In this document: piece after piece, positions 34,822 through 36,195 of the stretch | How the letters are laid out: every line of letters starts with the position of its first letter | Position numbering within the stretch: position 1 is the first letter of the stretch | Origin: a virus | Lineage: Duplodnaviria; Heunggongvirae; Uroviricota; Caudoviricetes | Reading direction: 5' to 3' (one strand) | Virus record (IMG/VR): IMGVR_UViG_2684623189_000004 | DNA: 47,382 nucleotides | Notes under the pieces: model-generated | Told to the model about the DNA's origin: nothing | What the model saw: the letters and a program-made list of their open reading frames with translations, nothing else | The model's database searches: none | Program-made: the position numbers and the translations under genes

Positions 34822-34850
34822 GGAAAAAACAAAACCCGCCGAAGCGGGTT
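34822..34850 (-). terminator. rho-independent terminator after hok
   Basis: minus strand AACCCGC-TTCG-GCGGGTT followed by TTGTTTTTT; a second perfect 9-bp hairpin lies at 34890..34911. Confidence 0.6.
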
Positions 34851-34918
34851 ACGTGCGGGTGCGTTGAGGATGCCTGACACATCAGAGGTGGCGAGGGATT
34901 TCTCCCTCGCCGGGTCTC

Positions 34919-35074
34919 TTACTCCTCAGGTTCGTAAACTGTGAAGACAGCGACCTCCGTCTGGCCGGTTCGGATTCGTACCTCGCAGAGGTCTTTCCTC
35001 GTTACCAGTGCCGTCACTATGACGGTTAAACAGATGACGATCAGGGCGATTAACATCGCCTTTTGCTGCTTCAT
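34919..35074 (-). CDS. hok: Hok/Gef family type I toxin
   Basis: MKQQKAMLIALIVICLTVIVTALVTRKDLCEVRIRTGQTEVAVFTVYEPEE, near-identical to K-12 HokD as recalled; upstream fold-back hairpin at about 35195..35230. Confidence 0.9.
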   Translation of the reverse strand: MKQQKAMLIALIVICLTVIVTALVTRKDLCEVRIRTGQTEVAVFTVYEPEE

Positions 35075-36195
35075 AGCCTGCTTCTCCTTGCCTTTCGGCA
35101 CGTAAGAGGCTAACCTAGATTTGCCGTTCATAGATTGAGCCTCAGATTAATGTTAAGCGTCTTGCAGGACGCGTAATATTAACTGGGGCTTTTCTCTATC
35201 TGCCTTTGGTGTTCATGCCTGAGGCAGATAGCCTCAAGCACCCGCAGCAATTCTACTTAACTCCCGTCACCTCGCCAATATAAAATCAATCAGAAAGGCG
35301 ATCCATAAGAACAACAGCAAGACAATAAATTGCCATTACAGCCGCAATAGCTAGCGCACATTTGAGAACCAGCACGACAACCTCCTGTATTGGACGTACA
35401 CCAGTTCTGATAAATATGAGGCTGTCTCATCATTGATTCAATATAACTATTGGGTATAGTTTCTGTGATTTTGTTCTGTAGAAATGGAACACAACAACCA
35501 GTCACCACCAGCACTTCTTTAAATACGCCAAGTCCGACGCAAGCTAACCTTCTAGTCCGCTTTGAGCGATCTGCAGACATTGCTAGCAGCCTTCTGTGTG
35601 AATTCTCAGGGAGCAGGTCGGCATAGCATCACGTTGAGGCTCTTACCCTACTTGTTGACACCAACCCTAACTCCACAGACTGATTCATAAATTAGTAATC
35701 TGCGTGTTTCGCACTTTTCAGAAATGCTTTCATATTTTCATTAGGTCGCTCAATTTCGAAGTTACTTCCATATAACTCTTGTAATTTTGGCCATAACTTA
35801 CTTAATAACCCTCTCCTGCGATAAAATGGATGTATCCAAACGGTAGATAGGTACGGAGAATTTGCATTTGAATTGTTTATTGTGACCAGCCCAACTAAAC
35901 ATTGTCGATAACCACTATTATCCATTGATTGTATTTCTTCGACGAATGGATACGCGATTACATCAGTCCAACCATGATCGGTTGTATCCCATTGCATTCC
36001 GTCATGACATTCCTTCGACTGATAGCGGCGTAAAGCTACACACGCGAGCTTTTGCCAATCTGGAGAATTAATTGTGATCTCTTCATCGTATGACGCGCCT
36101 ATTGGAGCGGGTATTGGTCTGATTAATCCAGCATGGCATTGGTGATGCTGCCAACTTACTGATTTAGTGTATGATGGTGTTTTTGAGGTGCTCCA

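Follow-up and report, generated by a model that had tools for sequence, protein, structure and literature searches.

What kind of module surrounds the toxin gene hokD in this prophage, and does the DNA just ahead of it encode a cysteine-rich peptide, another product or nothing at all? The window (the whole stretch of 47,382 nucleotides that was analysed) represents a lambdoid prophage of E. coli, which is 100% identical to the corresponding DNA of UTI89, S88 and APEC O1. Within it, two adjoining units are found on the minus strand, flanked by a variable cargo gene and by the DUF968-RusA-Q region. The hok module, a small ORF and a cysteine-rich frame all read on that strand, only the predicted Sok RNA lying on the plus strand. 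Our reading, to which we assign a probability of roughly 75%, is that the locus consists of a complete hok/mok/sok module and a separate 29-codon gene, and that the 96-residue cysteine-rich ORF is not a gene.

The hok module and its predicted antisense RNA

An intact HokD-like toxin had been recognized from the letters alone, and annotation, family models and signals agree with it, as the RefSeq hokD, the Pfam HOK_GEF match, a promoter, a terminator and a mok frame are all found. The hokD coding sequence (34919-35074, minus strand) specifies 51 amino acids, MKQQKAMLIALIVICLTVIVTALVTRKDLCEVRIRTGQTEVAVFTVYEPEE, and the identical stretch of UTI89 is annotated in RefSeq as type I toxin-antitoxin system toxin HokD (WP_000813256.1). 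The product scores 77.3 bits against Pfam PF01848, HOK_GEF (gathering score 22), and 110 bits against phrog_251; with the NCBIfam subfamily model it reaches 45 bits, under the 73-bit cut-off. Overlapping hok in the same frame is mok, an open frame of 70 codons in the ORF list (34919-35131, minus strand), and its exact product occurs in public collections under Hok/Gef family names. From established hok/sok biology we take mok to be the frame through which hok is translated and its start region to be the target of Sok.

The signals of a hok mRNA bracket these frames. The predicted hok promoter, TTGGCG-17 nt-TAGAAT (35250-35278, minus strand), came from a promoter scan with 9 of 12 matches; it is kept across 90 loci, and its -10 hexamer ends 7 nt ahead of the first position of Rfam model RF01794 (sok). 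This model matches at 35069-35243 over its full length (model positions 1-157) with 113.3 bits, the gathering score being 59. Its end falls on the hok AUG, and it must therefore have been built in the hok-sense orientation, so that the match marks the 5' leader of the hok mRNA on the minus strand, beginning with the 5' element GGGTGCTTGAGG at about 35243. At the other end, the terminator scan returned an intrinsic terminator (34823-34850, minus strand) whose stem-loop at 34833-34850, AACCCGC-TTCG-GCGGGTT, is followed by a T run and forms the final hairpin of the predicted mRNA fold.

The fold-back structure and terminator that the sequence-only reading attributed to hok are both recovered, the former in predicted folds. 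In the minimum-free-energy fold of the predicted 418-nt mRNA (34826-35243), the first 12 nt pair with CCUCAACGCACCC at 34857-34869, which marks the fold-back inhibition (fbi) element CCTCAACGCACCC on the minus strand. The fold has a z-score of -8.5, none of 100 shuffled sequences being as stable, and the same closure of 5' on 3' end is retained in the predicted fold of a 5'-extended transcript. A match of isrK to the hok 3' region (27.8 bits, gathering score 50) was dismissed as a chance match to a hairpin plus terminator.

The antisense RNA had been expected but not mapped, and homology together with structure now gives it a predicted place on the plus strand. The putative sok promoter (35088-35116, plus strand) comprises a -35 TTGCCT, a 17-nt spacer and a -10 TAACCT, this last a weak match to consensus. 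The hok locus of R100 carries TTGCGC-17-TATCCT at the matching position; across 90 hok-linked loci the hexamers are conserved as TTGCCT or TTGACC and TAACCT or TAATCT. The predicted Sok RNA (plus strand, about 73 nt) would start near 35123 and end near 35195, its ends being placed by homology with R100 and by a hairpin with a U tract. An unpaired 5' tail, able to base-pair with the mok start region, would be followed by a long hairpin and the U tract; the fold energy is -34 kcal/mol (z = -6.55), a stability that none of 200 shuffles reached. Among 22 alleles from the 90 loci, the hairpin and U tract are nearly invariant and the 5' tail is hypervariable.

By analogy with R1 and R100, the hok mRNA would run from about 35243 to the terminator hairpin, and the full-length form would be held closed by pairing of its 5' end with the 3' element. 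Translation of Hok would require the overlapping mok frame, and plus-strand Sok would cover the mok start and block mok. Every sequence element that this mechanism calls for is present and conserved here. The locus shares with hok/mok/sok (parB) of R1 and R100 the order and positions of the promoter, of the 5' element GCTTGAGGC..TCTGCCTCA and of a mok overlapping hok. The shared layout extends to the Sok promoter, here a predicted one, antisense to the hok ribosome-binding region, to the 3' fold-back element and to the terminator, and the toxins are of the same Pfam family. In an alignment with R100 (mean column identity 72%), the 5' leader, the Sok promoter region and the hok ribosome-binding site each contain conserved blocks; the predicted Sok hairpin here differs by an insertion of about 16 nt. 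Whereas R1 and R100 are plasmids, the present locus resides in a chromosomal prophage and is known from its sequence.

The hokD (relF) peptide of the K-12 Qin prophage differs by one residue (Ala46 in K-12, Val46 here), its 3' untranslated region, fold-back element and terminator are nearly identical, and the neighbourhoods are related, Rem lying downstream of hokD in K-12 and strain B and DUF968/YdfU with Q occurring in both K-12 and the window. Homology with K-12 reaches back just 15 nt from the ATG. Beyond that point, relBE takes the place of the leader, mok start, Sok target and Sok hairpin in K-12, standing immediately upstream of hokD where the window has the 29-codon ORF. Unlike K-12, the window thus holds the complete hokD form. 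As a hok/sok system the module is complete, ordinary and already known, and the analysis adds nothing new to it.

The cysteine-rich frame

The 96-codon frame upstream (35290-35580, minus strand; from the ORF list) had been noted earlier as an ORF with 13 cysteines. The open frame exists and ends in the string that had been quoted for it, but the count of cysteines is 11, eight of them within the 47-residue version that begins at an internal Met. Were the 96-residue ORF or this shorter version of 46-47 residues translated, a metal-binding, disulfide-rich or bacteriocin-like peptide could be imagined, and the frame is indeed open over 96 codons here and figures in several GenBank submissions as a hypothetical protein (e.g., UTI89_C1473). 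An open frame of this length is nevertheless not unusual in this region, as 26 ORFs of at least 90 amino acids are listed in 14 kb, many of them within real genes in other frames or on the opposite strand.

Conservation tests argue strongly against a cysteine-rich product. Its frame has a pN/pS of 1.21, and synonymous changes make up only 7 of the 37 distinct ones, where 28% would be expected. From the first ATG its length varies between 0 and 132 amino acids in 111 related loci, the commonest value being 23, and the 96-residue form is seen in nine of them. The number of cysteines is no more stable: the last 29 codons specify between two and seven in different alleles, and the Shigella plasmid copy lacks most of the cysteines. 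The upstream two thirds of the frame show no coding signature and carry, in relatives, four stop-creating changes and five variants with 1-nt indels. No ribosome-binding site precedes either Met. The ORF matches no family in Pfam, NCBIfam or PHROGs, and a search of 5.8 billion proteins found no homologue outside the locus, all 28 hits being the same Escherichia/Shigella locus; current RefSeq annotation has dropped it.

The origin of the cysteines is also apparent. Six of their codons sit at junctions where a codon ending in T is followed by an Ala or Val codon of the 29-codon frame, and it is because such T-ending codons precede Ala and Val codons that cysteines appear one base away. The cysteine-rich ORF is a frame shadow, that is, the hydrophobic 29-codon gene read one base out of frame, and translation of a cysteine-rich peptide is accordingly judged highly improbable.

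A 29-codon candidate gene

The same DNA holds, in a frame different from that of the cysteines, a 29-codon ORF with a perfect Shine-Dalgarno sequence, which the sequence-only reading had missed. It occupies 35286-35375 on the minus strand in the ORF list, starts with GTG and specifies VLVLKCALAIAAVMAIYCLAVVLMDRLSD, a single hydrophobic helix with a short charged tail (GRAVY 1.8, and 2.7 over residues 6-24). Inspection of the letters shows AGGAGG (35381-35386, minus strand) 5 nt upstream of the GTG. Among 124 copies representing 30 alleles, every one has 29 codons, and the ribosome-binding site is purine-rich in all 124 (AGGAGG, AGGAGA, GGGAGG or AGGGGG, with a single AGAAGA) at a constant spacing of 5 nt. 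The ORF is intact in 105 of 111 loci, a count inflated by the pattern used to collect related loci, which demanded an intact last 24 nt; these nucleotides were excluded from the selection tests.

Selection is seen in this frame only. Its pN/pS is 0.28, versus 1.21 and 0.49 in the other two frames, and synonymous changes make up 19 of 37 where 32% would be expected (P = 0.01), a signal that amounts to 37 distinct changes among closely related alleles, at least 79% identical. The replacements are conservative, exchanging V, I, A, T and M.

A promoter-like element precedes the ORF. The candidate (35413-35441, minus strand) was recognized by conservation and consists of a -35 TTGAAT (35441-35436), a 17-nt spacer and a -10 CATATT (35418-35413), with a transcription start expected near 35406; with 8 of 12 matches it falls just under the threshold of the promoter scan. 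CATATT is present in 120 of the 124 copies and TTGAAT or TTGAAG in 96, and the distance of 17 nt between the hexamers is constant, the sequence of the spacer being lineage-specific. On the 5' side of this element, a further conserved spacer (35424-35569, minus strand) is shared by most, not all, lineages, most E. coli matches ending at 35569. Between 35424 and 35600 no RNA gene was detected (no Rfam match; folds with z = 0.0 and +1.6 on the two strands), nor was any coding signal in the six frames upstream of the promoter candidate.

In its distribution, the small ORF is both common and narrow. It occurs in 1957 of 5426 complete E. coli genomes (36%), the same search giving 2236 places in all, and on Shigella virulence plasmids, which have lost hok. 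The copy on pWR501 is 79.5% identical and starts with ATG in place of GTG; nucleotide conservation of the small ORF in this Shigella comparison is no better than that of its flanks. At about 20 loci the ORF is kept ahead of a different downstream gene. When one genome per species was scanned, matches came only from E. albertii, Shigella flexneri and three short contigs of metagenome bins that bear the names of other genera; these three are taken to be mis-binned. A HMMER search of 1.84 billion representatives gave no homologue outside Escherichia and Shigella, only the same family and one low-complexity match, and a 40-residue in-frame extension of the peptide used as query retrieved Escherichia copies only. 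The peptide matches no family in Pfam, NCBIfam or PHROGs, a full-text search of the literature for its sequence found no match, and the ORF does not appear in the supplements of the E. coli Sakai ribosome-profiling paper or in current RefSeq annotation.

In a published study that re-analysed retapamulin ribosome-profiling data from BL21, this very ORF is listed (PMC11188072, Table S4) with 13 initiation-site reads, 38 footprint reads over 90% of the ORF and a dN/dS of 0.46, and is classed as coding. The signal is weak in a table that also holds many low-count ORFs lacking a selection signature, and it was obtained in a different strain with a different allele. The corresponding cluster of the Entero67K catalogue, Escherichia_98807, comes from the same study (PMC11188072); its BL21 entry, VLVLKCTLAIVAVMAIYCLVIVLMDHLSD, is an allele of the present set found at 13 loci and differs from the window allele at five residues. 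Like the window copy, it lies upstream of hokD, 213 nt from the BL21 gene. The catalogue gives no context, promoter or function for it.

Might the ORF instead be a chance frame, with nothing functional upstream of the hok promoter and the whole block having recently spread with hok among E. coli prophages? The close relatedness of the copies, their confinement to Escherichia and Shigella, the Shigella conservation level, the weak profiling signal and the missing RefSeq annotation would all suit such an origin. It would leave unexplained why synonymous changes are in excess in one frame only and replacements are conservative, why the length is fixed at 29 codons over 30 alleles, and why the ribosome-binding site keeps its spacing and the start codon passes from GTG to ATG in one lineage. 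The promoter-like hexamers likewise hold their distance despite a diverging spacer, the ORF persists where hok is deleted or replaced, and an independent study reached a coding classification (PMC11188072). We regard a chance frame as unlikely. A ribosome-binding site, a conserved start and stop, and purifying selection confined to its own frame make the 29-codon ORF a real candidate gene.

Possible roles of the 29-residue peptide

As a gene, the 29-codon ORF would be served by its own promoter-like element and a strong ribosome-binding site, separately from hok, and its product, a single hydrophobic helix, would most likely insert into the inner membrane. The gene is probably a moron expressed from the prophage, an additional gene that brings its own promoter. 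Between it and hok there is no terminator, so that its transcripts probably continue through hok to the hok terminator.

Several small proteins of about 30 amino acids share the layout of one hydrophobic helix and a short charged tail, among them the toxins TisB, Ibs, ZorO and ShoB and the regulators AcrZ and MgtS. The 29-residue peptide has no sequence similarity to any of these, and neither an antisense RNA nor a structured mRNA was found for it. The resemblance in size and hydrophobicity to TisB, Ibs and ZorO, together with the position next to hok, raises the idea of a second type I membrane toxin, the two forming tandem toxin loci with a further antitoxin RNA. A plus-strand promoter-like sequence, TTAACT-18-TAAAAT (35257-35286), would even drive an RNA antisense to the small ORF, but its -10 hexamer is not conserved, about half of the alleles having TGAAAT, and the plus-strand terminator scan found no terminator; an antisense RNA resting on this one site was rejected as a candidate. 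Furthermore, the small-ORF mRNA folds with z = -0.78, versus -8.5 for hok, its strong ribosome-binding site is mostly unpaired in the predicted fold, and the peptide resembles neither Hok nor any toxin family. A toxin translated from a consensus ribosome-binding site and free of repression would be hard to maintain, and we find a second toxin distinctly improbable. Descent of the peptide from a degenerate duplicate of hok was also considered and discarded, as it shows no similarity to Hok.

Rather than a second toxin, we are inclined to see in the peptide a harmless small membrane protein, for example a modulator or an exclusion factor. A more specific proposal, which we consider speculative and rather unlikely, is that the peptide is a functional inner-membrane microprotein working with Hok, the two genes being co-transcribed and forming a membrane-targeting moron that borders a cargo and defence hotspot of the prophage. 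The peptide might then tune the insertion or toxicity of Hok or exclude superinfecting phages, and it would have persisted upstream of icsP on the Shigella virulence plasmid in its own right.

For the hok family, the module described here provides a clean example of a form that is lacking in K-12. The useful outcome is corrective, in that an attractive cysteine-rich ORF which had entered GenBank as a hypothetical protein proves to be the shadow of another frame. The ORF that casts it, which also forms one edge of a site where lambdoid prophages carry variable cargo, is unannotated in current RefSeq and yet is carried by about a third of complete E. coli genomes and by Shigella virulence plasmids. 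As a membrane-peptide ORF of 29 codons, it offers a cheap and well-defined target for work on small proteins.

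Reading frames upstream of hok

The real content of the ORF upstream of hok is predicted, from its sequence and its variation, to be a conserved, unannotated 29-codon membrane-peptide gene. Like all features described here unless marked otherwise, this small ORF lies on the minus strand; it runs from a GTG at 35375 to 35286 (VLVLKCALAIAAVMAIYCLAVVLMDRLSD), with a Shine-Dalgarno AGGAGG (35386-35381) five bases before the start. When divergent E. coli loci, phages and the Shigella plasmid pWR501 (ATG start, 79.5% identical) are aligned, all retain the small ORF together with its ribosome-binding site and stop, while third-codon positions vary and Ala, Val, Ile, Thr and Met interchange. 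The small ORF is intact in 105 of the 111 loci with sufficient flank.

The sequence-only reading had placed here a 96-aa ORF with 13 cysteines as a possible peptide gene. The open frame (35290-35580) and the quoted peptide end were found, with 11 cysteines counted, and the frame itself does not behave as coding sequence. Scanning viral and genome contigs gave 134 pattern matches, 124 of them recognisable small-ORF copies; because the search pattern demanded the ORF's final 24 nt, selection tests are limited to the other 60-63 nt. Across 30 alleles, pN/pS is 0.28 in the 29-codon frame (20 distinct peptides), 1.21 in the cysteine frame (28 distinct peptides) and 0.49 in the third frame. When each distinct change is taken once (n = 37), 19 are synonymous in the 29-codon frame (51% vs 32% expected, P = 0.01) and seven in the cysteine frame (19% vs 28% expected); in the third frame five create stops. 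Six cysteine codons sit exactly at junctions between a T-ending codon and a GCN or GTN of the 29-codon frame. The upstream two thirds of the cysteine-rich ORF (35430-35569) display no synonymous excess in any of the six frames, and in the cysteine frame this part carries four stop-creating changes and five variants with 1-nt indels. Counted from its first ATG, the frame varies from 0 to 132 aa among the 111 loci (commonest 23 aa), and in pWR501 it reads GGCHVGTERHVGYCSRDDNLLSYRCSYGTLF, so that most cysteines are gone there. Older GenBank records list it as a hypothetical protein of 47 to 104 aa, current RefSeq carries no annotation of it, and no match was obtained in the family libraries (Pfam, NCBIfam, PHROGs). 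A search of 5.8 billion proteins returned 28 clusters, every one from Escherichia or Shigella, the named ones labelled hypothetical or uncharacterised. The cysteine-rich ORF is thus not a gene: its length varies by locus, and stops and indels interrupt it in relatives.

Upstream of the small ORF, 120 of 124 copies have the predicted -10 hexamer CATATT, and 96 have TTGAAT or TTGAAG 17 nt upstream of it, the spacer between them differing in sequence by lineage. Such retained hexamers around a diverging spacer are promoter-like behaviour, and the element is a predicted promoter; beyond the -35 hexamer, divergence between lineages is complete. At the other end, homology runs about 17 nt past the stop, hok-less loci included (TGATTGATTnnATAnTGGC; 35269-35288). 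The predicted small-ORF mRNA has no unusual structure (z = -0.78). Only 43 nt, containing the hok promoter, separate the small-ORF stop from the hok transcription start; since no terminator was found in this gap, read-through into hok is likely. In the predicted fold of the resulting 581-nt transcript, the hok domain is still closed on itself.

Distribution and genomic setting

The small ORF with its ribosome-binding site occurs at 2236 places in 1957 of 5426 complete E. coli genomes, as well as in four sequenced phages and 143 plasmids, and no feature is annotated over it in 59 of 60 sampled records. No relatives outside Escherichia/Shigella were detected by a one-genome-per-species scan, a 40-aa in-frame extension search or HMMER. 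The small ORF is already known as a predicted microprotein, because the Cryptic Bacterial Microproteome study (PMC11188072, Table S4) lists it in BL21 (NC_012971.2:1591437-1591524, minus strand; cluster Escherichia_98807), with 13 retapamulin initiation-site reads, 38 footprint reads over 90% of the ORF and a dN/dS of 0.46. The listed sequence equals one of the 30 alleles collected here and sits 213 nt upstream of BL21 hokD; the catalogue gives it without context or function.

In 83 of 111 loci hok follows 210-213 nt after the small ORF. In about 20 others, a convergent DUF1971 gene and a shared hairpin replace hok downstream of it (5461-6151 in L056; also L004, L013, L020 and others), and the small ORF can therefore be a separate unit. 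The plasmids are mostly Shigella virulence plasmids (over 130 records). There the small ORF has an ATG start and forms a block with the hok promoter and some 60 nt from the beginning of the hok leader, the remainder of the hok locus being lost. The block lies about 290 bp ahead of the icsP start codon, within the extensively studied icsP regulatory region; in pWR501 it covers 1520-1760 of the compared locus (window equivalent 35441-35190).

Over the 901 bases surrounding the small ORF and hok, UTI89, S88, APEC O1, IHE3034 and numerous further E. coli chromosomes are 100% identical to the window. The minus-strand order in UTI89 is a YdaT-like gene, a hypothetical gene, DUF977, two hypothetical genes, a 617-bp stretch without annotated gene, hokD, a 92-aa hypothetical gene, DUF968, RusA and the Q antiterminator; the region is the early-right part of a lambdoid prophage. 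Elsewhere in the window, DicF (42795-42846, plus strand), three tRNAs (30302-30548), two STnc100 copies (29546-30223) and IS009 (1378-1576) all exceed Rfam thresholds.

Directly upstream of the small-ORF/hok cassette lies a hypervariable gene, with 31 unrelated families among 107 loci (window about 35692-38600; equivalents in L002-L133), including QueH, GNAT-like, SIR2/ThsA-like (PADLOC ThsA, 108 bits), restriction endonuclease and large NTPase-like proteins. This site resembles a hotspot at which lambdoid prophages carry cargo or defence genes, with the cassette at its border. In the window it holds a 333-aa GNAT-like gene (phrog_16994), intact in UTI89 and broken here by an IS1 copy (36141-36917; 768 bp plus a 9-bp target duplication, 777 bp); the 101-aa ORF at 35692-35997 is its C-terminal remnant. 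In the B lineage, the cargo region between DUF977 and the small ORF is deleted, and in BL21(DE3) (L136, 1638-2045) the annotated DUF977 CDS runs into the small ORF and ends there, covering roughly the initial 13 codons.

The hok/sok locus and its predicted antisense RNA

The hok/sok locus is real, already known and complete in its sequence elements; hok enrichment in prophages has been described in a preprint on Hok diversity (bioRxiv 10.1101/2025.08.07.668861). The earlier proposal of an intact HokD-like toxin with fold-back and terminator holds. The 51-aa hok ORF (34919-35074; RefSeq name HokD) matches Pfam HOK_GEF (77 bits) and phrog_251 (110 bits), and the ORF list contains the overlapping 70-codon mok, in frame with hok, from 35131. 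Transcription would start from TTGGCG-17-TAGAAT (35278-35250) and end at the terminator at 34850-34833. The leader (35069-35243) matches Rfam RF01794 (113 bits), which marks it from its 5' end and, since the model finishes on the hok AUG, is written in hok-sense orientation. For the predicted 418-nt transcript the fold energy is -175 kcal/mol (z = -8.5), and the initial 12 nt pair with CCUCAACGCACCC close to the 3' end; this modelled 5'-to-3' pairing gives the closed conformation that is classic for hok mRNA. An isrK candidate over the 3' hairpin and terminator (34829-34910) is sub-threshold in Rfam (27.8 bits vs gathering 50) and probably due to chance. At hok codon 47 (34931-34936), Tyr47 is UAC inside UACG, the context of TadA A-to-I editing; a recent preprint reports Tyr-to-Cys recoding by such editing in hokB, hokC, hokD and hokE mRNAs.

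The R100 hok locus aligns with 72% mean column identity and has the same conserved blocks, which lie in the 5' leader, in the Sok promoter region and over the hok ribosome-binding site. In K-12 MG1655 (L134, 3120-3347, vs window 34919-35090), by contrast, upstream homology is confined to the 15 nt preceding the hokD ATG. There relE terminates 71 nt upstream of hokD, relBE having replaced the leader, mok start and Sok region; the K-12 copy is therefore truncated and the window copy complete.

The sok promoter is predicted on the plus strand as TTGCCT (35088-35093), 17 nt and TAACCT (35111-35116), exactly where R100 has TTGCGC-17-TATCCT. Judged from the sequence and the R100 position, the predicted transcript would start at G35123 (plus strand), seven bases downstream of TAACCT, and comprise a single-stranded 5' tail, a long hairpin and then CUUUUCUCU (-34 kcal/mol, z = -6.6); it is complementary to the mok start codon and ribosome-binding site. 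Among 90 hok-linked loci, the two promoter hexamers hardly vary, and neither do the hairpin and U tract, but the 5' tail of roughly 16 nt (35123-35139, plus strand; antisense of mok codons 1-5) is hypervariable across 22 alleles. The hok/small-ORF region has up to 11 matching places per genome, and a variable tail on a fixed hairpin would be expected if the recognition tail must stay specific among co-resident copies. This pattern suggests that the Sok tail has diversified in target specificity between hok/sok copies sharing a cell.
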